Shown here piece by piece: positions 9,063-63,599 of a stretch of DNA of 64,000 nucleotides. Under the pieces are notes generated by a model that saw nothing but the letters and a program-made list of their open reading frames with translations, ran no database searches and was not told the origin of the DNA. Numbering within the stretch: the stretch's first letter is position 1; each line of letters starts with the position of its first letter. The stretch comes from an uncultured Candidatus Saccharibacteria bacterium (lineage in GTDB: Bacteria > Patescibacteriota > Minisyncoccia > Phycocordibacterales > UBA9973), in the NCBI GenBank assembly GCA_964626965.1, contig CAZVHB010000001.1, positions 1,818 to 65,817 on the forward strand. The letters are read 5' to 3'. Both the position numbers and the translations under genes were made by a program.

Positions 9063-11459
9063 ATGCAGAAATCACCCTACACCGAAACCTACATTCTCCT
9101 CGATGCACATGCGATTATTCACCGTGCGTACCATGCGATTCCTGACTTTACGACAAAAAGTGGTCAGCCGACAGGAGCTCTCTTTGGACTCATGAGTATG
9201 CTCATTCGCATTATGACCGAGATCAAACCAGACTATATTATTGCATGCTATGATCTACCCGATAAAACATTTCGTCATATTGCCTACGATGCATACAAAG
9301 GCACTCGCGCAAAGACTGATGATATTCTTGTCGAGCAACTCATCAAATCTCGCAGTATCTTTGAACGGTGTAATATCCCTATTTACGATGCAAAAGGATA
9401 TGAAGCAGACGACGTACTCGGCACGCTCGCTGATATCTTGAAGAAAAATAAGAAAAATAAAGTGATCATTGCGTCAGGTGATATGGATACGATGCAGTTG
9501 ATTGATAGTGACCAAGTTGTTGTGTATACACTCAAGAAGGGGATCACTGATACTATTTTTTATGATGAAGAAGCTGTGGTAGAGCGGTATGGATTTTCGC
9601 CTTCTTCGATTCCAGACTATAAAGGATTACGTGGCGATACATCAGATAATATTATCGGTATCAAAGGTATTGGTGAAAAGACTGCAACAATTCTCATTCA
9701 GAAATACGGTACGATAGAACAGATGTATGTTGCGCTTAAAAAAGACGAAGCAAAATTTAAAAAAGACACAGGTCTCACGGACAGACTTGTGGGGCTTATT
9801 CGTGATAATGAAGAAGAAGCACTTTTTTCAAAAGAGCTCGCGACCATACAACGAGATTTACCAATTAATCTTACGCCTTCTGTTCTTCATCATACTATCT
9901 TTAATAAAGATGACGTGATTGCGCTCTGTGAAGAACTTGAATTCAAAAGCCTCATTCCACGTATCTCAAATTTGTATACGAATAATACAGAAACAATTTC
10001 AAACAAGAAGACAGTTTCAAAAGAGGATACAAGTGAAGTGGTCCCAATAGTAGAGGTAGATCCAAAGTATCTTCTTGCTGTATCACTCCTTGATTCAGAG
10101 AAAATCAAACCAACAGCGGAGGATATTTTGGCCTATAGTAACCAAGGTGATTTGGGTGAAGCATATGCAACTATAGAGAAAGAAATAGTAAAAAATAATC
10201 TCGAGTATGTGTGGAAGGAGATTGAAATACCTCTCTATGATATTGTCCAAGAAATGTCAGCTACTGGTATTACGATTGATATTCCATATTTTAAAAAAAT
10301 GAGTGAAAAACTCCACAGTGAACTCGACACATTAGAAAAAAGAATTTGGCAACTTGCTGGACAAGAGTTCAATATTAACTCACCAAAACAAATGGGAGAA
10401 ATATTATTTACAGTGCTCAATTTAGGTGAAGGGCAGAAGAAAATCAAAAAAACTGCAGGTGGGGCTATTACGACAAAAGAATCCGAGCTTGAAAAGTTGC
10501 GTGATGCTCATCCTATTATCTCGTATATCCTCGAATACCGAGAGATTCAGAAGCTTGTTTCAACATATATTGATAGTATTCCACTCTTAGTTGGTGCTGA
10601 TGGACGAATCCACTCTACTTTCAATCAACTTGGTGCGGCAACTGGACGTTTTTCTTCAAACGACCCAAACCTTCAGAATATTCCTATCAAAACAGAACGG
10701 GGAAGACTTATTCGTGGTGGTTTTGTTGCAAAGTCAGGTTATGTATTTTTGGGCTTTGACTATTCTCAGATTGAGCTACGTGTTGGCGCGCTTCTTTCAC
10801 AAGATCCGGACATGCTTGATACATTCATTCATGGTAAAGATATTCATACAACTGTGGCGAAAAAAGTTTTTAATGTTGAAGAGTCTGGTGTCACTCCTGA
10901 CATGCGTCGCAAAGCAAAAGTGATTAATTTTGGAATTATGTATGGTATGGGTGCGACAGCGCTCTCAGAAAATTTGGGTGTCCCACGAAAAGAAGCCCAG
11001 CTTTTTCTAGAAGAATATAAAAAACAATTTCCTGGGCTCAATATGTACCTTGAATCTATCGTAGAATTTGCAAAGACACACAAATATACGGAAACATTTT
11101 TTGGAAGAAAGAGAAATTTTTCAAAAATAAATTCAGTCATTCCATTTATTCGTGCAATGTATGAACGTATGGCAGTCAATGCACCAGTGCAGGGGACAGC
11201 TGCAGATATTATTAAGCTTGCGATGTTGCATTCACGTAAAATACTTGCGGAACACAAACTTGATATACATGCACAGCTCGTTTTGCAAGTGCATGATGAA
11301 ATTATTTTTGAAGTTGAAGAAAAATATCAACAAGAAGTAGCGGAACTCATCGAAAAGACGATGGAAAATATCATCCCGAAAAATATGAAAAAAGATCTTA
11401 TTTTTCCACCTTTTTCAACTTCTGTTGCGGTCGGGAAAACCTGGGCAGATTTGAAGTAA
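9063..11459 (+). CDS. polA: DNA polymerase I (5'-3' exonuclease plus polymerase; the 3'-5' exonuclease domain looks reduced)
   Basis: Motif A DYSQIELR, motif B RRKAKVINFGIMYG, motif C QVHDEIIFE. TACAAT-N6-ATG lies at the start. Confidence 0.9.
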   Translation: MQKSPYTETYILLDAHAIIHRAYHAIPDFTTKSGQPTGALFGLMSMLIRIMTEIKPDYIIACYDLPDKTFRHIAYDAYKGTRAKTDDILVEQLIKSRSIFERCNIPIYDAKGYEADDVLGTLADILKKNKKNKVIIASGDMDTMQLIDSDQVVVYTLKKGITDTIFYDEEAVVERYGFSPSSIPDYKGLRGDTSDNIIGIKGIGEKTATILIQKYGTIEQMYVALKKDEAKFKKDTGLTDRLVGLIRDNEEEALFSKELATIQRDLPINLTPSVLHHTIFNKDDVIALCEELEFKSLIPRISNLYTNNTETISNKKTVSKEDTSEVVPIVEVDPKYLLAVSLLDSEKIKPTAEDILAYSNQGDLGEAYATIEKEIVKNNLEYVWKEIEIPLYDIVQEMSATGITIDIPYFKKMSEKLHSELDTLEKRIWQLAGQEFNINSPKQMGEILFTVLNLGEGQKKIKKTAGGAITTKESELEKLRDAHPIISYILEYREIQKLVSTYIDSIPLLVGADGRIHSTFNQLGAATGRFSSNDPNLQNIPIKTERGRLIRGGFVAKSGYVFLGFDYSQIELRVGALLSQDPDMLDTFIHGKDIHTTVAKKVFNVEESGVTPDMRRKAKVINFGIMYGMGATALSENLGVPRKEAQLFLEEYKKQFPGLNMYLESIVEFAKTHKYTETFFGRKRNFSKINSVIPFIRAMYERMAVNAPVQGTAADIIKLAMLHSRKILAEHKLDIHAQLVLQVHDEIIFEVEEKYQQEVAELIEKTMENIIPKNMKKDLIFPPFSTSVAVGKTWADLK

Positions 11460-14768: not shown

Positions 14769-14795
14769 TCCTTGCTATAGTAGTATACTGTGTAC

Positions 14796-38153: not shown

Positions 38154-38618
38154 ATGAACTACTGGTTAATGAAAAGTGAAGGTTCGTGTTACAGTATTGA
38201 CGACCTGAAAAAAGATAAAAAAGTTGCATGGGAAGGCGTACGAAATTTTCAAGCACGAAATTTTATGATGAAAGATATGAAAAAAGGGGACACTGTTTTC
38301 TTTTATCATTCAAATGGGAAGGGGGAGAGTCCTACTGGAATTTATGGCTTGGCAAAAGTTACGAGTTCTGCACATCCAGATGAAAGTCAGTTTAACCCAA
38401 AAGACGAACACTATGACCCAAAGAGTAAAAAACAAAATCCTACATGGTACTGTGTAGATGTTTCTTTTGTAAAAAAGTTTAAAGAACCAATTGCATTGTC
38501 GTATGTAAAAATCGATCCACATCTTGTCGGTATTATGGTTGCCCAAGGTGGATCACGACTTTCAATTCAACCTGTATCAGAAAAACATGGGAAGTACTTA
38601 TTAGAAATTAGTAATTAA
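38154..38618 (+). CDS. EVE (PUA-like, DUF55) domain protein
   Basis: YWLMKSE......W.GVRN.QARNFM..MK.GD.VFFYHS. Confidence 0.75.
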   Translation: MNYWLMKSEGSCYSIDDLKKDKKVAWEGVRNFQARNFMMKDMKKGDTVFFYHSNGKGESPTGIYGLAKVTSSAHPDESQFNPKDEHYDPKSKKQNPTWYCVDVSFVKKFKEPIALSYVKIDPHLVGIMVAQGGSRLSIQPVSEKHGKYLLEISN

Positions 38619-38637
38619 ATATTTTTTATTTTCTGAT

Positions 38638-39192
38638 ATGTATGAAATTATCCACACAAAAGCAATTGTACTTCTCGATCGAGTAGAAAAAGAGTACAAT
38701 AAAATATTTTTTTTGTTTACCGAAGAACTCGGGCTTGTTTCGGTGCATGCAGTTTCTATTTTGAAACCAGGGGCGAAACTTGTTTCTATGTTGCAACCAC
38801 ATAGTATTATTTCTTGTGATATTGTCGTCGGGAAACACTCAAAGAGAATTACGACGATTGTTGAGAAACATCCATACGAGCATATTTTTTTAAATACACA
38901 CAAGAAAAATAGTTTTCTCTCTATTTTTAATTTTATTATTGCGATGGTTCCGCGAAATATTCCAGTGAAAGACGTGTACGCGCTCTTTTCTGATTTTATT
39001 TATACGCTTGAAACTGACACTCACACAGAGGAAAGCGTACAACAACTCGAAGTTCGTACACTCTATAAAATATTGGCTTCACTTGGGTATATCGACACAG
39101 AGTACCATTATATGTTTGATACAATTGAGACAGATGATTATCCAAAAATGTACGATACGGTAAATAAGGTATTGAAAGAAATACATACATAG
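38638..39192 (+). CDS. Possible DNA repair protein RecO (short form)
   Basis: N-terminal OB-like AIVLLDRVEKEYNKIFFLFTEELGLVSVHA... and C-terminal LEVRTLYKILASLGY. This rests on weak similarity only. Confidence 0.35.
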   Translation: MYEIIHTKAIVLLDRVEKEYNKIFFLFTEELGLVSVHAVSILKPGAKLVSMLQPHSIISCDIVVGKHSKRITTIVEKHPYEHIFLNTHKKNSFLSIFNFIIAMVPRNIPVKDVYALFSDFIYTLETDTHTEESVQQLEVRTLYKILASLGYIDTEYHYMFDTIETDDYPKMYDTVNKVLKEIHT

Positions 39193-39239
39193 GGGATTAG
39201 TAAGTAGTAAGTAGTAAATAGGACTACCGTGAACATAAT

Positions 39240-39317
39240 ACAGTAGGGCGCCTATGGCGCCCTACTGTATTTCTATAACCTGTAACCTTTCACCTGTACC
39301 CTAGTTCGTGCTATAGT
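39240..39317 (+). promoter_or_regulatory. Terminator-promoter cassette 1: GC-clamp hairpin, then 4 tandem heptads (ataacct gtaacct ttcacct gtaccct), 9 bp, TATAGT
   Basis: acagtagggcgcc-tat-ggcgccctactgt; heptads 39275-39302; TATAGT 39312-39317; ATG at 39330. Confidence 0.6.
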
Positions 39318-39329
39318 GTATGTACTATT

Positions 39330-41282
39330 ATGGATAATAAATATATGCCAAAAAGTTCCAAATTTCAGAATTTAGAGGATTCTTTGTACGATCCAACCGA
39401 TGACAGTATCCGCACTCGAAGCGGATCTCTACATCCCTCACAAGTTTCTGTTGAACAAAGTTGGTCAAAAGTTGATCAAGCTGAAGACTCACAAGGGCAA
39501 GCTGCAGAAAAAGCATTGATTGAAAACAGGGACGCGCTTTCCAGAAAGAAAAACTCTTTTTTTAAGAAGTTTTTTGTCTCATCACTCCTTTTTCTGTTTG
39601 TCGCTGTTGGTTTTGGTGTGTATTCTTTTTTTATAAAAAATACGATCAATCCAGAGGGGAATATCACTATCGGTATCGTTGGAAGTACTTTTACTCAAGC
39701 TGGAGAAGAATTACCTTTGATTGTTGAAATAGAAAATAAAAATGATTTTGCACTCGAAGTAGTTGATCTGATTGTTGAATATCCTCGTGAAGGAGCGATA
39801 CCGACTGCATCTCTTGAAACGACCGACAGAGAGCGGATATCTCTTGGTACTATTGATGCGCATCAACACATGTTGAAAGAAGTTCCACTCACACTCTACG
39901 GTAAAGAAGGTGATAAAAAGGAGATTCATTTTACACTTGAATACAATATCGAAAGTGCTTCAACAATTTTTCAAAAACAAAAAATATATTCAGTAACACT
40001 CTCTTCTTCTCCGATTGCGATGCGTGTTATTGGTTCTGATATCGCTGTGCCTGATCAGAGTTACCGGTTCACGGTTGAGGTAAGTACTAACACTAAGAAA
40101 CCTCTTGAAAATATTCTTCTTGCATTAAATTATCCTATTGGATTTACCTATACGAGCGCGAGTATTGAACCAAGCTCAGGTAACTATTTGTGGGATATTG
40201 GTACCCTTGTACCAGGAGCCCCAAAGACTATAGAAATTATAGGAAAATTTTCAGGCCTTGAAGGAGACGAAAGATCTGTTCGTGCTATTTTTGGTACGTA
40301 TCTTCCTGATGATAAGACAAAAATCAGTACAAATCTTGGAACTCTCTTGCAAACCGTAAAATTAGAGAAACCTTTCATATCAACAGATCTTGCTATTAAT
40401 GGAGTGAATGGTGAATTTGTAAATATCAACAGTGGTGAACAAATTCAAGGAGTGATTAATTGGAAAAATAACCTAACTAACCAAGTGCTCGATCTTGAGA
40501 TTCGTCTGAAGCTCAAAGGTGACTTACTTGATCGAACAAGTATTGAAGCACAGGATGGCTTTTATGATTCACTCAATGATACGATTGTGTGGAATAAAAA
40601 TACAATTAATTCTTTTGTTCGAGTTCCGGCTGGTGCAAATGGAGCACTTAACTTTACTATTCGCACACTCCCTGCAAAAACAGATGGAAGTATGAAAAAT
40701 CCTCGTATTGAAGTTGAGGTTGGTGTTAAAGCAATTGAAGATAGTGAAGGTAAAACTCCAAAAATTATTGAATCTGTTGAACAGACAACAGTACGTGTTG
40801 GTGGTGATGTGTTTTTGACTCCAGTTGTCTATCATCGTACTGGTCCTATTACAAACGTCGGTGCGTATCCTCCAAAAGTAAACACAGAGACGACCTATAC
40901 TGTTGAACTTAATATTAAGAATACTATTAATGATTACAGTGGTGGAGAAGTTCGTGCAAAATTCTTCCAAAATGTAACATTCACCAATGTTATTGCACCT
41001 GCAACCGAGCAAATTTCATACGACGAGAAAACAGGTGAGCTTGTTTGGAAAGTCGGTGCTATCCCTCAATCAAGTGGTATCGCACGTACTGTCGCATTTC
41101 AATTAAAGACGATTCCTTCACTTTCTCAAGTTGGACAGTTTGTACCTCTCCTTAAGGAAATGACTTTTGTCTCGACTGATCAATTTACTAAAACTCAAAA
41201 ATCTCAGAGTATTGATACGATTACCTCTGAAGTGAGTCGAGTGATTGAGCTCGATGGAGGGAATGCTGTCGTAGTTAAATAA
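39330..41282 (+). CDS. Large membrane-anchored protein (cytoplasmic N-terminus, 1 TM helix, extracellular DUF11-like repeat domains)
   Basis: TM helix FFVSSLLFLFVAVGFGVYSFFI; several blocks matching the conserved repeat domain (DUF11) pattern ...GxxVxYTVxVxN.... Confidence 0.6.
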   Translation: MDNKYMPKSSKFQNLEDSLYDPTDDSIRTRSGSLHPSQVSVEQSWSKVDQAEDSQGQAAEKALIENRDALSRKKNSFFKKFFVSSLLFLFVAVGFGVYSFFIKNTINPEGNITIGIVGSTFTQAGEELPLIVEIENKNDFALEVVDLIVEYPREGAIPTASLETTDRERISLGTIDAHQHMLKEVPLTLYGKEGDKKEIHFTLEYNIESASTIFQKQKIYSVTLSSSPIAMRVIGSDIAVPDQSYRFTVEVSTNTKKPLENILLALNYPIGFTYTSASIEPSSGNYLWDIGTLVPGAPKTIEIIGKFSGLEGDERSVRAIFGTYLPDDKTKISTNLGTLLQTVKLEKPFISTDLAINGVNGEFVNINSGEQIQGVINWKNNLTNQVLDLEIRLKLKGDLLDRTSIEAQDGFYDSLNDTIVWNKNTINSFVRVPAGANGALNFTIRTLPAKTDGSMKNPRIEVEVGVKAIEDSEGKTPKIIESVEQTTVRVGGDVFLTPVVYHRTGPITNVGAYPPKVNTETTYTVELNIKNTINDYSGGEVRAKFFQNVTFTNVIAPATEQISYDEKTGELVWKVGAIPQSSGIARTVAFQLKTIPSLSQVGQFVPLLKEMTFVSTDQFTKTQKSQSIDTITSEVSRVIELDGGNAVVVK

Positions 41283-42681: not shown

Positions 42682-42724
42682 TATGGTATATATAATCTAT
42701 TAACTAGTAACTACGAATTAACTC

Positions 42725-43993
42725 ATGAAATACACTCAAAAAAAACTACCCAACGGTATTCGCGTCATTTTTCACCCAATGCAAAATACTGAAACCGTAA
42801 CAGTTATGACACTTGTTGAAACTGGTTCAAAATACGAGACAAGAAAACAAAATGGACTCTCTCATTTTCTTGAGCATATGTGTTTCAAGGGGACAACAAA
42901 GCGTCCAAGTAGCTTTCTTATCTCAAAAGAACTCGATGAAATAGGTGCTCAGTACAATGCTTTTACCTCACACGAATATACTGGCTACTACGCAAAATCC
43001 GCATCAAATCACTTTGAACGTATTTTTGATGTCGTTTCTGATATTTACCTCAATCCACTTTTTAAGCAAGAAGAAATAGATAAAGAAAAAGGAGTGATCA
43101 TTGAAGAAATAAATATGTATCAGGATGACCCTAAGCGACACGTCTTTGAAGTTTTTATGCGGGCACTGTATGGTGATCAGCCAGCTGGGTGGTCTATCAC
43201 TGGAAGTAAAGAAAATGTGAGTAGTATGAAACATCGTGACTTTGTGCAGTATCACGATACACACTATATTCCTGAAAAGACATTACTGGTTATTAGTGGT
43301 AACTTTGATACAAAACATGCGGACATGCTTATCAAAAAAACCTTCACTAGTCTCAAGAATAAGAAGGGGATTCAAAAAAAGAATACTAAAGATAGCCAAA
43401 CAAAACCTGTTGTTATGATTGAAAAGAAAAAAACTGATCAAGTTCACTTCGTGCTTGGTTTTAGGAGTATCAATGTGTACGATGCGGACGCACATATTTT
43501 TGATGTTTTAAATGCAATTCTCTCTGGTGGTTTTTCTTCACGACTTCTGATGAAGCTCCGTGAAGAATTAGGTGCTGCATACTATGTCGGATCTTTTTCT
43601 GATCCATTTACTGATCATGGTTTTTTTGGAATACGCGCAGGTATTACAAAAACAAAAGTACCACTCGTGCTCACTGAAATTGCAAACCTATTGAAAGAAT
43701 TATCTGAAAAAGAAATTGATAACACAGAATTAAAGAAAGCGAAAGAGTATTGTATTGGTGGAATGAAACTTGATTTAGAGACCAGCGATTCGTATGCAAA
43801 TTTTTTAGGAGGGCAAGCAATCGTTCGAAAACCAATTGAGAGCTTGTCTGATATTGAGAAAAAAATAGCACGTGTGACGTCTAAAGGTATTCTGCGTATT
43901 TGTAAAAAAACATTTGTTTTTAAGAAAATGACTATTGCGCTCATAGGTCAAGATGTGAAAGAAAGTGAAGTTTTAAAAGCATTTTCCCTGTAA
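42725..43993 (+). CDS. M16-family (insulinase/pitrilysin-like) zinc peptidase
   Basis: Inverted zinc motif HFLEHMCFKGT (HxxEH). Confidence 0.85.
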   Translation: MKYTQKKLPNGIRVIFHPMQNTETVTVMTLVETGSKYETRKQNGLSHFLEHMCFKGTTKRPSSFLISKELDEIGAQYNAFTSHEYTGYYAKSASNHFERIFDVVSDIYLNPLFKQEEIDKEKGVIIEEINMYQDDPKRHVFEVFMRALYGDQPAGWSITGSKENVSSMKHRDFVQYHDTHYIPEKTLLVISGNFDTKHADMLIKKTFTSLKNKKGIQKKNTKDSQTKPVVMIEKKKTDQVHFVLGFRSINVYDADAHIFDVLNAILSGGFSSRLLMKLREELGAAYYVGSFSDPFTDHGFFGIRAGITKTKVPLVLTEIANLLKELSEKEIDNTELKKAKEYCIGGMKLDLETSDSYANFLGGQAIVRKPIESLSDIEKKIARVTSKGILRICKKTFVFKKMTIALIGQDVKESEVLKAFSL

Positions 43994-44128: not shown

Positions 44129-44401
44129 AATTTTTTTATTTAGAATTTTTATTTTCTAAATAAAAATTTCTCAATAATAAAATATTTTAAAAAAATAAAT
44201 GTATAAAAATATTTTTTTGAAAAAAAACTTTTATAAAAAATAAAAAAAGTTTTCCACAGTTTTTATTTTTTTTTCAAAAAAACTATTTACTTTATTTTTG
44301 TATATACGATAATTAAATTATCAAGTACATTTAGTAGCATTAAAAATATTTTTGCGAAGGTCGGTGTACTTATTTATTACTAATTGCATGCAAACAATTA
44401 T

Positions 44402-44530
44402 ATGGCAGCTAAAAAAGCAAAAAAGAAAGTAGCTAAGAAAGCAGTTAAGAAAACTGTAAAAAAAGTAGCTAAGAAAGCAGTTAAGAAAACTGTAAAGAAA
44501 GCAACAAAGAAGGTAGCGAAGAAAAGATAG
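44402..44530 (+). CDS. 42-aa Lys/Ala-rich basic protein (histone H1-like / Hc-like nucleoid protein). It is not in the ORF track because it is shorter than 60 aa.
   Basis: MAAKKAKKKVAKKAVKKTVKKVAKKAVKKTVKKATKKVAKKR. It contains an internal 36-nt tandem duplication and has its own terminator. The 82-aa minus-strand ORF 44321-44569 is its antisense shadow. Confidence 0.6.
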   Translation: MAAKKAKKKVAKKAVKKTVKKVAKKAVKKTVKKATKKVAKKR

Positions 44531-44552
44531 TTCTTCTACATTCTTCCCACAA

Positions 44553-44587
44553 GCAAAATATCCTCGCAAGAGGATATTTTGCGTTTT
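44553..44587 (+). terminator. Rho-independent terminator
   Basis: caaaatatcctc-gcaa-gaggatattttg followed by cgtttt. Confidence 0.8.
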
Positions 44588-47963: not shown

Positions 47964-48007
47964 GAGAGAATGCTAAATTCTAAATGTTAAATGCTAAAAT
48001 AGAAACC

Positions 48008-48045
48008 AAAACAGCAGGGCGCCAAAGGCGCCCTGCTGTTTTCTG
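48008..48045 (+). terminator. GC-clamp terminator (ACAGCAGGGCGCC-aaa-GGCGCCCTGCTGT)
   Basis: Same hairpin design as at 33797, 39240, 57183 and 60530. Confidence 0.85.
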
Positions 48046-48067
48046 TTGATTATGCTATAATGCATAT

Positions 48068-48397: not shown

Positions 48398-48845
48398 ATG
48401 AAAACAATCATGACTCTCTGTATTATCCGAGATGGAGACAATATCCTACTTGCCGAGAAGAAGCGAGGATTTGGTGTTGGCTATTGGAATGGCTATGGAG
48501 GCAAGCTCGAGGATGGGGAGACAATAGAACAAGCACTCGTACGAGAAGTTAAAGAAGAATCTGGACTGGATCTCCTTGAATACAAAAAACGGGGGGGAGA
48601 TGGAATTTCATCTCTCTGATGGAGCAATAAAAGAGGTTCATATATATGAAGGGGTGAAATGGGTAGGAGAGCCAGTTGAAACTGAGGAAATGCGACCCGC
48701 TTGGTTCTCTATCTCTCATATTCCTATGGAGAATATGTGGGCAAGCGACCTCCATTGGTATCCATCTTTCCTCAAACGAGAGGATTTTCGAGGTAGAATA
48801 GACTTTGATGAAAACAAGCAGGTAACTGCTATAAAAATGTACTAA
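48398..48845 (+). pseudogene. Nudix hydrolase (MutT/MTH1-like) disrupted by a 1-nt frameshift in the A6CG7 homopolymer at 48584-48597
   Basis: The N-terminal part (48398-48619) carries the Nudix box GGKLEDGETIEQALVREVKEESGL. The C-terminal part (48576-48845, +1 frame) carries W..ISHIPME.MW..D..W.P. Deleting one A or one G gives a contiguous ~150-aa protein. Confidence 0.65.
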
Positions 48846-56276: not shown

Positions 56277-56308
56277 TAAAAACCCGTCTTATTAGGCGGG
56301 TTTTTTTA
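56277..56308 (+). terminator. Rho-independent terminator
   Basis: aaaaacccg-tcttattag-gcgggttttttt. Confidence 0.7.
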
Positions 56309-56349
56309 TGTTATACTGTCTCTTATTACCCTTAATCATACATATATAT

Positions 56350-57141: not shown

Positions 57142-57182
57142 CAAATAGTGTATAGGTTTTAGGTGACAGGTTATAGTATAAA

Positions 57183-57276
57183 CAGACGAGGTGTCCGAAG
57201 GACACCTCGTCTGTTGTCTATTCTGTATTTTCTGTACCCTACAACCTACCACCTAAACCCTCGCTCATGCTATAGT
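57183..57276 (+). promoter_or_regulatory. Terminator-promoter cassette 2: GC-clamp hairpin, then heptads (gtaccct acaacct accacct aaaccct), 9 bp, TATAGT, N6, ATG
   Basis: acagacgaggtgtcc-gaa-ggacacctcgtctgt; heptads 57234-57261; TATAGT 57271-57276; ATG at 57283. Confidence 0.6.
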
Positions 57277-57282
57277 GTCTGC

Positions 57283-58626
57283 ATGAATTCCGACAACACA
57301 CTCTTTTTCCAAACCCACCCTGAACTGAAAAATATTCTAGAAGCACACGGAAGTAAGACAATTATGGAGTATATTACTTTTGTGAATGACTTTATTTCAA
57401 AGGGTGATTTTTCTTTTTTTGACCAACGACAGGAAGATTTTTTTGCAGTGTATCAAGAAACACTGAAATCGATTTTTGACGAGCGTGTCATTCGGGAGTC
57501 TATTGAAACCCTTAAAAAAAATAGACTTATCTCTACTGCTGATCATCAAGGTGTCATCTCACATCCATTTTTTCTCAGTAGTACCTATGCTCGTACTCTC
57601 TATGCTCAAAAAGTAGGTCAGGGGAGTGTTGTGACTTTTCCGTGTGCAAGTATCTCTCTTTCAAATTCATCTTTTCCTCGAGGGCTTATTGTTCATGATC
57701 GTGATGATGTTGAGAAAAAAATATATTTTAAATCTCTCGTCCATAAACTCAATCCGGTCTTTTGTGAAGAAAAAATAGAGAGAGACGGTGTACAGAAAAT
57801 GTATGATACTCTCTCTTCAATTACTCTTGAGAAAGAAATGCGTAAAAAAATACTTTCTGTATTTAAAGATATCTTTTTTTCAGAAAAATTTCTAAGCTTG
57901 GAAAGTTTCGATGAACAGTGTACGTATGGGAGTTTAATGCTTTGGAAGTATGTTCCTACTTTCGAAAATATAGATCTCATCTATGTATCTCAAGAAAAAG
58001 TAGTAACTGATTTGATTATTAAAAAACATTTGGGTGGCGATACGCTGATCCACTCTCTTTTGTTCGATGAAACGTATCATGCACTTTTTGTAAGATATTT
58101 TGATGGAATTACTGGGGCATTTGATATACAGGCGAAGAAAGGTACGCAACTGTTTTGGGGTGTTCGCGCGCATGAACGTGTCGCACTTTTTATTCAAGAA
58201 AATAAGCTCATTGATAGTAATGGAGATATATTTCTAATAATAGAGACAGAAGAAATAAAAAAAGCATTACAAGAGAGGCGAATCATGCCGAGCATGCCAC
58301 TCGTTTTTATTGTGCTCTCTTTTTACTATGGTTTTGTCTGTGGTGGGGGATTTAGTCAGGTGGATTATCTGGGGTCTATGAAAAATGCCTGGATGAATAT
58401 GCTTCGTGATGTTGGAGAAAATAGTGAAACTGATCAAGTAGAAAAAATACCGACTAATATTTTGCTTGGTGACTATGCAACGATTCAGTCTGGAGATACT
58501 AAAAAATTGCGTCATGCTTTTCATTTAATCATGAAAGATTCAGCACATACTGAAGATATTAAAAAAATCTTCTTACAGAGAACTATATCAGAAGACATGA
58601 AAGATGGATTTACTCTCTATTTATAA
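57283..58626 (+). CDS. Hypothetical protein (448 aa)
   Basis: Long ORF driven by the heptad-type promoter. No recognisable domain. Confidence 0.5.
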   Translation: MNSDNTLFFQTHPELKNILEAHGSKTIMEYITFVNDFISKGDFSFFDQRQEDFFAVYQETLKSIFDERVIRESIETLKKNRLISTADHQGVISHPFFLSSTYARTLYAQKVGQGSVVTFPCASISLSNSSFPRGLIVHDRDDVEKKIYFKSLVHKLNPVFCEEKIERDGVQKMYDTLSSITLEKEMRKKILSVFKDIFFSEKFLSLESFDEQCTYGSLMLWKYVPTFENIDLIYVSQEKVVTDLIIKKHLGGDTLIHSLLFDETYHALFVRYFDGITGAFDIQAKKGTQLFWGVRAHERVALFIQENKLIDSNGDIFLIIETEEIKKALQERRIMPSMPLVFIVLSFYYGFVCGGGFSQVDYLGSMKNAWMNMLRDVGENSETDQVEKIPTNILLGDYATIQSGDTKKLRHAFHLIMKDSAHTEDIKKIFLQRTISEDMKDGFTLYL

Positions 58627-60430: not shown

Positions 60431-60452
60431 GAAATACGAAAAGCATAACAGC

Positions 60453-60494
60453 GGGGGGGGGGGGGGGGGGGGCGGGGGGGGGGGGTGGGTGGGG
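60453..60494 (+). repeat. 42-nt poly-G tract (interrupted by c, t, t) followed by A13
   Basis: gcgggggggggggggggggggcggggggggggggtgggtgggg aataaaaaaaaaaaaa, in a genome of ~35% GC. Confidence 0.9.
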
Positions 60495-60529
60495 AATAAA
60501 AAAAAAAAAATCAAAAAACCCAAAACAAC

Positions 60530-60616
60530 AACAGCGGGACGCCCTTCGGGCGCCCCGCTGTTTGATTTTTCCTATAACCTAATACCTATCAACTATAACC
60601 TAGCGCGTGCTATAGT
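60530..60616 (+). promoter_or_regulatory. Terminator-promoter cassette 3: GC-clamp hairpin, then heptads (ataacct aatacct atcaact ataacct), 9 bp, TATAGT, N6, ATG
   Basis: acagcgggacgccc-ttc-gggcgccccgctgt; heptads 60574-60601; TATAGT 60611-60616; ATG at 60623. Confidence 0.6.
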
Positions 60617-60622
60617 TTCTCT

Positions 60623-61402
60623 ATGCACACAGCACACAGTGTTAAAAAAATAGGATTCTATGATTCTGGATTAGGAGGACTCTTTTTAATGCACTATGTA
60701 CAAACAGTATTTCCGGGATACGAATATGTCTTTTTGGGGGATGAGAAAAATCTACCCTATGGTCCACGTCCTGTCGAAGAACTATTTACCTTTGCTCGTA
60801 CTGCTATCGATTTTTTATATGATAAAGAAAATTGCGATATTGTCGTTATTGCGTGCAATACGCTCTCTGCGACTGTGTATGAAACTTTGGCGCTCGAGTA
60901 CAAGGTAAAGCATCCTGACCGATTACTTATCGATGTCATTACACCGACTATCGACGCACTTGAGAAAGATACACACTTCAGTGTCTTTGGAACACTACGC
61001 ACTATTGAAAGTCATCTCTATCGAGATGGCATTACTAAAAATTTTCCTGACGCGAAAGTCGATGAGTACGTCGCGACTAATCTTGCATTGTTGATAGAAG
61101 AAAAAAGAGATACGACCGAATCAATCAGTTCTTTTAAAGATCAGGTTTATCCTCATCCTCATACGATGATCTTGAGTTGTACTCATTATGGAATAGTGGA
61201 AGATGTTTTTCGAAAGGTATATCCAGAGTGTTCCGAGATTATTTCCCAGCACTCAATCATAACTGATCTCTTTCGTTTCATGCTCCATCCAGGAGGTGAA
61301 GAGGTATCTGTGCGGATATTGGTGACAAAAGATAATCCAGTGCTTACTGCATATAGTAAAGAATGGTTTCCTTCGGTAGGGCCTGAAGTGATAAATCTCT
61401 AA
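60623..61402 (+). CDS. murI: Glutamate racemase
   Basis: IGFYDSGLGGL; VIACNTLSA; SCTHYG. Confidence 0.9.
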   Translation: MHTAHSVKKIGFYDSGLGGLFLMHYVQTVFPGYEYVFLGDEKNLPYGPRPVEELFTFARTAIDFLYDKENCDIVVIACNTLSATVYETLALEYKVKHPDRLLIDVITPTIDALEKDTHFSVFGTLRTIESHLYRDGITKNFPDAKVDEYVATNLALLIEEKRDTTESISSFKDQVYPHPHTMILSCTHYGIVEDVFRKVYPECSEIISQHSIITDLFRFMLHPGGEEVSVRILVTKDNPVLTAYSKEWFPSVGPEVINL

Positions 61403-62825: not shown

Positions 62826-62829
62826 CTTA

Positions 62830-62870
62830 TTCCATAACCTGTATGTTGATACAGGTTATGGTTTTTTTAT
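62830..62870 (+). terminator. Rho-independent terminator
   Basis: ccataacctgtat-gttga-tacaggttatgg followed by ttttttta. Confidence 0.85.
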
Positions 62871-62909
62871 TTCTTTATAATTTGGAATTTATAATTTATA
62901 ATTGTTTGT

Positions 62910-63599
62910 ATGGCTCTAGTTAAAACAAAAAAAGAAATAGAAAACATACAAACTGCGTGTCAGATTACCGACGAGATTTTTAAAGAGGTGATTGTGTATG
63001 TGAAAAAAAATCGAGCGTGTACTGAGATTGAATTACAAAAATATATTTTACAACTCATAAAAAACAGAAATCTTCGCCCAAGTTTTCCGCCGATTGTGAC
63101 TTCGGGTTTCCGAGCAGGGAACGACATTCACCCAAAACCGACTGATAAAAAACTTGCCGGATTTACTATTATTGATCTCGGTGTTCGGTATAACGGATTT
63201 TGTTCTGATATGACTCGTACTATCTATGTAGGTGGACCAACAGAAAAAGAAAAAGAACTGTATCAAAAAATACTTGATGTGCAGTTGCTCGGTATCAAGC
63301 TTTCTCAGTCTGATGTGCGTTGTAGTGATATTGATGCGTCTGTGCGTTCATCACTTGATTCGCTTAAGAAATATTTTATTCATACCCTCGGACACGGTGT
63401 CGGACGAAAAATTCACGAAGCACCGATTATCTATGAAAAACGTACTAAGCCAGTTTTGAAAGATGCTATGGTGATTACTATTGAACCAGGTATCTATATC
63501 AAAAACAAGCTCGGAATAAGGATAGAAGATACGATTGTGGTCCAAGGTAAGAAACCGCTCATTTTGACTAAAACAACTAAAAAATTAATTTCTCTATAA
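62910..63599 (+). CDS. M24-family metallopeptidase (Xaa-Pro aminopeptidase / methionine aminopeptidase fold), catalytic domain only
   Basis: DLGVRYNGFCSDMTRT; HTLGHGVGRKIHE; MVITIEPGIY...GIRIEDTIVV. Confidence 0.8.
   Translation: MALVKTKKEIENIQTACQITDEIFKEVIVYVKKNRACTEIELQKYILQLIKNRNLRPSFPPIVTSGFRAGNDIHPKPTDKKLAGFTIIDLGVRYNGFCSDMTRTIYVGGPTEKEKELYQKILDVQLLGIKLSQSDVRCSDIDASVRSSLDSLKKYFIHTLGHGVGRKIHEAPIIYEKRTKPVLKDAMVITIEPGIYIKNKLGIRIEDTIVVQGKKPLILTKTTKKLISL

Follow-up and report, generated by a model that had tools for sequence, protein, structure and literature searches.

Heptad arrays between terminators and leaderless-type promoters in an uncultured Patescibacteriota bacterium: a dispersed cassette with a candidate protein-binding block

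In the genome of an uncultured Candidatus Saccharibacteria bacterium (GTDB lineage Patescibacteriota, Minisyncoccia, Phycocordibacterales, UBA9973), three intergenic regions carry a block of four tandem ACCT-type heptanucleotides between the terminator hairpin of one gene and the −10 element of the next. These regions lie in a stretch of 64,000 nucleotides, referred to here as the window (contig CAZVHB010000001.1 of assembly GCA_964626965.1, positions 1,818 to 65,817), upstream of a DUF11-domain gene (site 1), the gene of a 447-aa protein (site 2), and murI (site 3). The pattern is real and statistically solid. Taken as a whole, it is best explained as a dispersed terminator-to-promoter cassette that lacks a −35 hexamer, and in which the heptad block would be an array bound by protein, a reading that is given a probability of approximately 0.4.

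Placement of the arrays at gene boundaries

Direct reading of the three sites confirms the order given in a preliminary description of this DNA, that is, four heptads, 9 bp ending in TGC, and then TATAGT. The units, with the consensus RTAMCCT, are contiguous, amounting to 28 bp per array, and the distance from the array to the −10 element, which is occupied by the linkers AGTTCGTGC, CGCTCATGC, and AGCGCGTGC at sites 1, 2, and 3, respectively, is the same to the base pair in all cases. This identity had been extended to the start codon, which is correct for the genes at 57283 and 60623, where the ATG follows TATAGT after 6 nt, but not for that at 39330, where the distance is 12 nt. The blocks span approximately positions −50 to −22, and the third heptad lies exactly 17 bp upstream of TATAGT, and thus occupies the −35 position, as had been noted. 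A T-rich pseudo-unit (TATTTCT, ATTTTCT, TTTTCCT) precedes every array, and the first 7 bp of the linker hold a T in register, which gives six in-phase units, the last of which ends 2 nt before TATAGT.

When up to three mismatches were allowed, the four-heptad pattern returned five overlapping matches at four places in the window, against the 0.03 expected from dinucleotide shuffles, and period-7 runs of CCT with at least three units are confined to these four places within the 64 kb. The fourth place is an array on the minus strand (Table 1), which adjoins the hairpin of site 2 on its left, and has no −10 element after it.

The other components of these boundaries are widespread in the window, where the homologs are labelled Patescibacteria, Paceibacterota, or Nomurabacteria, and the housekeeping content includes recG, polA, type IV pilins, secA, murI, the RNase P RNA, and a tRNA-Ser (these two RNAs being all that an Rfam scan of the window at the gathering thresholds recovered). 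The window has 26 terminator-like hairpins, in comparison with 11 in shuffles; that of site 2, which has 16 pairs, is among the top hits, and those of sites 1 and 3 fold as stems of 16 bp and 13 bp, each followed by a T-rich tail. The GC-rich stem, short loop, downstream run of Ts, and position after a stop codon are all those of an intrinsic terminator. Terminators of equal quality that directly abut a −10 element, with no heptads, are found at 48008–48042 (−10 at 48053) and 56278–56305 (−10 at 56309).

Two observations concern the terminator stems themselves. The motif ACAG(Y)(A/G)GGGCGCC ... GGCGCCC..CTGT recurs in the window (39240–39268, 48011–48039, 60532–60560) and in two relatives (L109 9850–9878, L048 approximately 2770–2800), and could be either just a preferred terminator style or a repeated element, similar to an uptake sequence. 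The stem at 62829–62860, before the gene that starts at 62910, reads CCATAACCTGTA/TACAGGTTATGG, and is built from ATAACCTGT, with which the ACCT arrays at 39275 and 57174 (minus strand) also begin.

The promoters follow a similarly general pattern. A listing that covered every TGnTAnAnT in the window, and every one preceding a long open reading frame (ORF), places TGnTAnnnT 6–8 nt before the start codon (12 nt in one case) at a minimum of 16 genes. The start lies exactly 6 nt after the hexamer in ten genes (9063, 25754, 34565, 37271, 45438, 48068, 50444, 57283, 60011, 60623), and at 7–8 nt in several more; the published signature of leaderless transcription is a −10 box 6–8 nt from the start codon (PMC6028130). 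The TG at −15/−14, one base upstream of TAnnnT, is present in TGCTATAGT at 39309, 57268, and 60608, and the same −10 is found at promoters that have no array, at 14773 and in the relative L050. The known leaderless extended −10 promoters (the “group C” of GeneMarkS-2; Mycobacterium and Deinococcus) have in common with these the TGn, a TAnnnT 6–8 nt from the start, the lack of a Shine-Dalgarno sequence, and no need of a −35 element, whereas a four-heptad block at −50 to −22 is not described there. It is highly probable that each cassette is an ordinary gene boundary composed of a terminator and a leaderless promoter, and the geometry of the −10 element would place the 5′ end of the mRNA at or near the start codon. 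While the hairpin, TATAGT, 6-nt spacing, and ATG had been treated as a special cassette, these parts, together with the TGC, are the generic grammar of terminators and leaderless promoters in this genome, and only the 28-bp heptad block is distinctive.

The position of the third heptad had also suggested an alternative −35 mode, in which RNA polymerase, by way of region 4 or of an alternative sigma factor, would recognize the heptads, and the third in particular, as a substitute for TTGACA. The exact 17-bp spacing is consistent with this, as is site 1, where TTCACC matches TTGACA in four of the six positions and was caught by a promoter scan, but sites 2 and 3 read ACCACC and ATCAAC, with two matches each. 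A true TTGACA, at 17–18 bp, is present in a few promoters of the window (4893, 24493, 26468, 54193), the TTGACA-N17 arrangement included, and absent from most, and the TGn of the extended −10 makes a −35 hexamer dispensable. The use of the same TGCTATAGT element by array-less promoters, the retention of the −10 and the start in orthologous promoters that have no array, and the fact that a single −35 element needs neither four repeats nor inverted copies, all make this mode highly improbable. A promoter of the extracytoplasmic function (ECF) type (AAC ... CGT) was also considered and rejected, given that the distance from TGTAAC to CGT at site 1 is 20 nt, which is too long, and that the pattern is absent from the other sites.

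Constraint, homology, and turnover of the arrays

In a collection of 28 units from seven arrays, positions 5–7 are near-invariant (C in 26, C in 28, and T in 28 of the 28), and positions 1–4 are degenerate (R-T-A-M). The units of one array are no more similar to each other (0.41) than to those of other arrays (0.44), and the arrays are therefore not young tandem duplications; Tandem Repeats Finder gives them a match rate of 75–81%. The score of the CCT phase over 203 kb of the lineage is bimodal, reaching 11–12 of 12 in eight cases, against 0.2 expected, with the scores of 9–10 of 12 at the level of chance, and there is therefore no tail of decayed arrays. The promoter-proximal arrays of the lineage always have approximately four units. 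Overall, the evidence for selection on the block is modest.

These properties bear directly on the possibility that the arrays are heptanucleotide simple-sequence repeats, produced by replication slippage, which would favor 7-nt units in many prokaryotes, in an unconstrained spacer between the terminator and the −10 element, with no function, and with fixed edges set by the flanking elements. In the account of Mrazek (2007) relayed in PMC4679880, heptanucleotide repeats outnumber all other classes of longer simple-sequence repeats in prokaryotes, and slippage is proposed for them. The lineage has many families of units, some of which are nearly perfect and hence young (TAGTAAG, with a 94% match, and AAAGTAT in the relative L115), close relatives differ by the gain, loss, and replacement of arrays, and promoters work without them. 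Slippage does not readily account, however, for a near-invariant CCT next to degenerate positions, the lack of any excess similarity within arrays, the missing tail of decayed arrays, the retention of the ACCT type at an orthologous locus at 53% protein identity (L054), or the presence of approximately four units in place of a broad spread of copy numbers. The units are also not the identical or near-identical ones of a simple repeat, being only 41% identical at positions 1–4 within the arrays, and an origin by slippage is rather unlikely.

The hmw1A and hmw2A genes of Haemophilus influenzae have phase-variable 7-bp promoter repeats, with identical units, the number of which varies between cells. 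The common ground is the presence of 7-bp tandem repeats in the promoter region upstream of surface-protein genes, but the units of the window differ from each other, which makes slippage unlikely here. Phase variation was rejected because the units are non-identical and the duplicate assemblies identical, with L001 equal to the window, and L049 to L048, at the same loci, although these assemblies are probably derived from the same populations.

The homology of the copies extends beyond the heptads. Five full cassettes (sites 1–3 and those of L054 and L032) align without gaps over approximately 54 bp, with a mean column identity of 83%, and a sequence model of the cassette matches these five full copies, three array-only inverted copies (window 57146–57181, L048 17738–17774, L054 807–841), and two degraded orthologs in the 203 kb, with no copies beyond those already known when it was applied to 238 kb of this lineage. 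Three cassettes have the identical linker AGTTCGTGC, namely that of site 1, the one that precedes mreB in L032, and the one at the ortholog of the 447-aa gene in L054.

Such homology might reflect a mobile or converting promoter cassette of approximately 54 bp (T-rich lead-in, four heptads, linker, and −10), spread by gene conversion or by transposition similar to that of miniature inverted-repeat transposable elements (MITEs), which would deliver a leaderless promoter, with the heptads being merely internal sequence. The gapless alignment of copies from non-orthologous loci and genomes fits this account, and upholds in part the earlier suggestion of a conserved end of a mobile, promoter-carrying element. 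Further support is provided by the identity of the AGTTCGTGC linker at three unrelated places, when the orthologous copy of site 1 in L109 has AATATATGC, and by the inverted copies that flank the terminator of site 2 in the manner of terminal inverted repeats. However, the inverted arms occur at site 2 only, approximately 17% of the columns differ among the copies, the hairpins are unrelated in sequence, and there are no true terminal inverted repeats, evident target-site duplications, near-identical copies, or nearby transposase, with just five full and three half copies in 203 kb. Scans of viral contigs returned three matches, all due to chance or unrelated, and the exact cassette pattern has no match in the JGI metagenomes. 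Mobility by itself also leaves the period of 7 and the invariance of CCT unexplained, and is quite improbable as the full explanation.

Small palindromic intergenic elements, such as those of the Correia and REP/BIME types, are known to carry terminators or promoters. They share with site 2 a central hairpin flanked by inverted arms, with a promoter that faces outward on one side, but the cassettes differ in that their copies are not near-identical, are mostly one-armed, and show no target-site duplications.

The turnover of the block is clearest at the 447-aa gene, of which seven orthologous promoters were read, that of the window and those of six relatives. The ACCT type is kept only in L054 (53% aa identity), which has CTAACCT GAACCCT AACACCT ACAACCT, followed by AGTTCGTGC, TATATT, 6 nt, and the ATG, and an inverted TAGG-type array to the left of the terminator, so that both arrays of the site-2 locus are retained. 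Two other relatives have different heptads. In L048 (83%), conserved flanks (ctgtattttct ... tcatgctatagt.tctgcatgaattc) enclose four heptads of another sequence, accompanied on the left by an arm of the complementary TAGT type, while L051 (47%) has four ATTAGTA-type heptads, 9 bp, and TATACT. The array is absent from three of the six, L050 (73%), L052 (47%), and L053 (46%), in which the start lies 6–7 nt after the −10; the extended −10 is kept in L050 (TGCTATAGT) and L052 (TGCTATACT), and L053 has a plain TATACT.

The other loci also vary. At the DUF11 gene, the array of site 1 is kept in L109 but interrupted by a GC palindrome of 38 bp; in L108, four CTnnAnn heptads that run directly into TGCTATACT come after a related insertion, and L110 and L111 have no array. 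Upstream of murI, no array is found in L048 or L051, and the ACCT cassette upstream of mreB in L032 has no counterpart at mreB in L115, where MreB is 91% identical. The cassette is evolutionarily labile, being lost, interrupted, or replaced by other heptads, and the block appears to be optional, given that orthologous promoters would work without it.

Two observations in the relatives relate to these loci. The palindrome of L109 (9906–9943, CCCGAGGCGAAGCTCGGGATCCCGAGCTTCGCCTCGGG) and that of L108 (approximately 1322–1360, TCCCGAA...TTCGGGATCCCGAC...GTCGGGA) are GC-rich double hairpins located inside a heptad array, which are absent from the window, and look like a small mobile palindromic element. 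In L115, the divergent intergenic region between a priA-like gene and mreB (9890–9935) has approximately six near-perfect AAAGTAT heptads where L032 has the ACCT cassette.

The block as a candidate protein-binding array

The GC-rich hairpin and its run of Ts are the intrinsic terminator of the upstream gene, and TGCTATAGT is an extended −10 of the sigma-70 type, from which alone the promoter would fire. The heptad block, with its T-rich lead-in and linker, represents a homologous cassette of approximately 54 bp, dispersed among non-orthologous genes and genomes, and the ACCT family is one of several types of short heptanucleotide arrays that occur throughout the lineage on the flanks of terminators, in either orientation. 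Selection would act on the CCT triplets, with one protein unit bound per 7 bp and four units needed, and this binding would modulate the adjacent promoter, probably by repression or insulation, and also mark the flanks of the terminator.

A precedent for this type of binding is the omega/ParB protein of plasmid pSM19035, of the ribbon-helix-helix (RHH) class, which binds 7-bp heptads, and requires at least four contiguous units, in any orientation (PMC9499535). The omega operators and parS sites of the inc18 plasmids resemble the arrays described here in their contiguous 7-bp units with no spacer, overlap with promoters, and direct or inverted orientation, and need at least four units for full activity. 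They differ in having 7–10 units, a plasmid location, and a cognate omega gene, whereas the arrays of the window are chromosomal and have exactly four units. The layout of such an operator is nevertheless found here, with four units adjoining one another from −50 to −22, and a copy in inverted orientation at 57147–57174. Reasoning by analogy, a cooperative protein-binding array with an omega-like mechanism specifically can be proposed only tentatively. The preliminary description had envisaged a repeat-binding regulator with its regulon; the mechanism is possible, given the near-invariance of CCT, the constant presence of four units, and the omega precedent, but a conserved regulon is poorly supported by the sequences compared, with no array at murI in L048 and L051 or at mreB in L115, and with the array absent from three of the six relatives, and replaced in two others, at the 447-aa gene.

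A number of points weigh against a protein-binding array. The RTAMCCT consensus does not match that of the omega heptad, WATCACW, and a scan of 20 genes of the window, ten of them small ORFs, gave no candidate for a protein that binds the heptads, none having an RHH domain; the window is, in turn, only a small fraction of the genome. Arrays are also found on their own where there is no promoter (57147–57174, L054 807–841, L048 17738–17774), which leaves a pure promoter-operator role incomplete. The way in which the arrays were collected accounts, through ascertainment, for part of the invariance of CCT, and the constant 9-bp spacing may be a legacy of a common ancestral cassette and not a product of selection; arrays of the ATTAGAA family lie at varying distances from the −10 (9, 11, and 12 bp). 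Several unrelated heptad families coexist (ATTAGAA, TAGTAAG/ACTAnCT, TGCTAAA, TTTATAA, AAAGTAT), which is hard to square with one regulator per family. The heptads of L048 (ACTTACC, ACTAACT, ACTTTCT, and ACTAGCT) are identical to those of the window at only 13 of the 28 positions, and the set of genes downstream of the arrays is not conserved among the relatives.

The inverted copy at site 2 may have a structural explanation instead, in which an extended palindrome, imperfect and centered on a bidirectional terminator, would have the array as its right arm; this arm would pair with the inverted left array in read-through RNA or as a DNA cruciform, and contribute to termination, processing, or insulation. 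Pairing of the two arrays on either side of the hairpin is seen at the site-2 locus in the window, L054, and L048, and both arms changed type together in L048 (AGGT/ACCT to TAGT/ACTA). The duplex of the two arms surpasses all shuffled arms except 3 of 300 in the window and 5 of 300 in L054, and every array, in its own orientation, lies after a T-rich lead-in of the TTTCT type, and after the T-run of the hairpin where one is present. In L048, however, the duplex is not significant (27 of 300), and a partner arm is lacking at sites 1 and 3 and in L032, the arrays of which stay unpaired when folded at minimum free energy. As it follows the U-tract, the right arm would be transcribed on read-through only, and templated quasi-palindrome mutation could preserve complementarity in the absence of function. 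A palindromic role of this kind is distinctly unlikely, and arm-to-arm pairing was rejected as a general rule, being a property of the site-2 locus only.

A further candidate, the G-quadruplex or i-motif (four GG/CC tracts), was rejected because the heptad families that take the equivalent positions elsewhere lack runs of G or C.

The wider class of heptad arrays and its meaning

The ACCT arrays, the main features that surround them, and the other heptad arrays of the window are listed in Table 1. Multiples of 3 apart, a lag of 7 is the only period to be enriched, with six regions in the window, all of them intergenic, against 0.2 in shuffles, and 10 against 2.2 in 140 kb of relatives, and the ATTAGAA family is also present in L032, L051, L052, and L109.

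Table 1. Coordinates in the window of the three sites, their flanking features, and other heptad arrays.
Feature	Position	Strand	Remarks
ATTAGAA-type heptads	38596..38630	+	ATTAGAA ATTAGTA ATTAAAT ...; EVE/recO-like junction
recO-like gene	38638-39192		Pfam RecO_N
TAGTAAG heptads x3.4	39198..39221	+	between recO-like stop codon and terminator
Terminator hairpin of recO-like gene, T-rich tail	39240..39268	+	ACAGTAGGGCGCC-TAT-GGCGCCCTACTGT; 16-bp stem in minimum-free-energy fold
Site 1 four-heptad array, ACCT-type	39275..39302	+	ATAACCT GTAACCT TTCACCT GTACCCT; pattern scan; cassette model 57 bits
Site 1 linker AGTTCGTGC and TATAGT	39303..39317	+	TATAGT 39312-39317; TGCTATAGT at 39309-39317 = extended -10
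DUF11-domain gene, 650 aa	39330..41282	+	ATG 12 nt after TATAGT
CTAnTAA heptads in 5' leader	42693..42720	+	downstream of -10-like TGGTATATA, ending at ATG 42725
TGCTAAA-type heptads x4.3	47969..47998	+	between secA stop codon and its terminator
Inverted ACCT-type array in 3' flank of SIMPL gene, left of terminator	57147..57174	-	ATAACCT GTCACCT AAAACCT ATACACT; model positions 5-40 only, 19 bits
Intrinsic terminator of SIMPL/DUF541 gene	57181..57215	+	16-bp stem, loop GAA, T-rich tail
Site 2 four-heptad array, ACCT-type	57234..57261	+	GTACCCT ACAACCT ACCACCT AAACCCT; pairs with 57147-57174 across terminator in single-strand fold
Site 2 linker CGCTCATGC and TATAGT	57262..57276	+	TATAGT 57271-57276; extended -10 at 57268-57276
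447-aa protein gene	57283..58626	+	start 6 nt after -10; protein conserved in Patescibacteria
Terminator hairpin downstream of methyltransferase-like (MGMT-like) gene	60532..60560	+	CAGCGGGACGCCC-TTCG-GGCGCCCCGCTG; 13-bp stem
Site 3 four-heptad array, ACCT-type	60574..60601	+	ATAACCT AATACCT ATCAACT ATAACCT; pattern scan and cassette model
Site 3 linker AGCGCGTGC and TATAGT	60602..60616	+	TATAGT 60611-60616; extended -10 at 60608-60616
murI (glutamate racemase)	60623..61402	+	leaderless-type start 6 nt after -10
TTTATAA heptads x4.3	62874..62903	+	contain TATAAT -10 of gene starting 62910

The start of the gene at 57283, 6 nt after the −10, implies a leaderless mRNA for the 447-aa protein, which has no relative in Pfam, NCBIfam, or the PDB. 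The database copy of the DUF11 protein (P0106) has 645 aa, and is five residues shorter than the ORF, which fits a start at the next in-frame ATG (39345).

The arrays located between a stop codon and a terminator, which include those at window 39198–39221, 47969–47998, and 57147–57181, L054 804–841, and L048 9882–9902, have stops in all three frames in five of seven cases, in comparison with 8% of random 28-mers. As 7 is equal to 1 modulo 3, a heptad that bears a stop covers all the frames in three units. A three-frame stop module was rejected for the ACCT arrays, which have stops in only one or two frames on the sense strand.

Intergenic heptanucleotide repeats are known from scattered lineages (Mrazek 2007; the STRR of cyanobacteria; the TAACTGA repeats of the Beggiatoaceae, PMC4679880), and have in common with the present arrays a period of 7, from two to six or more units, and an intergenic location near gene starts. 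They are mostly perfect copies of a single unit, whereas the arrays described here are degenerate except for CCT, with approximately four units, 9 bp from the −10. The TAACTGA repeats lie in the 5′ untranslated region (UTR), just before the start codon (PMC4679880), and the ACCT arrays, which are upstream of the −10, do not match them. A single array of the window, in the region 42684–42727 (CTATTAA CTAGTAA CTACGAA TTAACTC, between TGGTATATA and the ATG at 42725), resembles these Beggiatoaceae repeats in its placement.

Outside the lineage, a fixed-geometry scan of 185,579 species genomes recovered 46 loci, in 45 of which the third heptad, which the pattern did not force, is CCT-like. Most of these loci are perfect heptamer arrays of cyanobacteria, which run flush into GCTATAGT, and some are imperfect four-heptad arrays like those of the window, in the Acidobacteriaceae, a deltaproteobacterium, and others. 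Over the genome and metagenome scans together, arrays flush with GCTATAGT (GTTCCCT, GACTCCT, and others) are found in cyanobacteria and several other phyla. In a variable-gap scan of metagenomes, the in-phase offset was found at 13 unique loci, against approximately 0.9 per other offset, although the null expectation for this offset is approximately four times the per-offset rate (p roughly 0.01), and the excess is suggestive, not compelling. As a separate observation, AGGT heptads in inverted orientation lie upstream of four imperfect heptads at two Acidobacteriaceae loci (L016 and L034), where nnnTCGTGC and TATAGT follow the array, and the ATG is 8 nt further on.

The four-heptad arrays might, on the broadest view, represent a cis-regulatory “grammar” of the gene boundaries of the Patescibacteria, in which the periodicity and a 3-bp core (such as CCT) would be read by a cooperative protein that binds one unit per heptad or by accessory factors of RNA polymerase, and which would be related to the arrays abutting −10 elements of the GCTATAGT type in cyanobacteria, Acidobacteria, and other phyla. 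If so, a promoter architecture that is widespread, but has not been described, would lie upstream of these −10 elements. This broader proposal is speculative, and improbable at present.

Three other observations were made in the course of the analysis. Just upstream of the terminator of site 3, positions 60451–60529 hold 42 nt of nearly pure poly-G followed by poly-A, and in L048 (17783–17880), runs of poly-G and poly-C surround an assembly gap (Ns) next to the inverted ACCT array; this type of tract may be a hypervariable homopolymer or an assembly artefact. At 48398–48845, two short ORFs that overlap (73 aa and 89 aa) each encode part of a NUDIX domain, which may reflect a frameshifted gene or a sequencing error. 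The minus-strand ORF at 44321–44569 (82 aa, with no Pfam match) contains ten copies of the 12-nt (also 36-nt) coding repeat GCAGCTAAGAAA, at 44405–44524, and its product would be a small, highly repetitive protein.

For the bacteria of the candidate phyla radiation (CPR), which are almost entirely uncultured, next to nothing is known of promoters and regulators. Should the CCT block bind a protein, it would be among the first cis-regulatory elements to be defined for the CPR, and a chromosomal counterpart of the omega-type operators of plasmids. Even if the arrays prove to be a by-product of slippage or of the spread of the cassette, they still show how a terminator and a promoter are packed into approximately 100 bp, and how such modules are turned over. 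Whichever of these holds, software that predicts genes and promoters in such genomes should anticipate an extended −10 located at −6 to −8 relative to the start codon, unaccompanied by a −35 hexamer.

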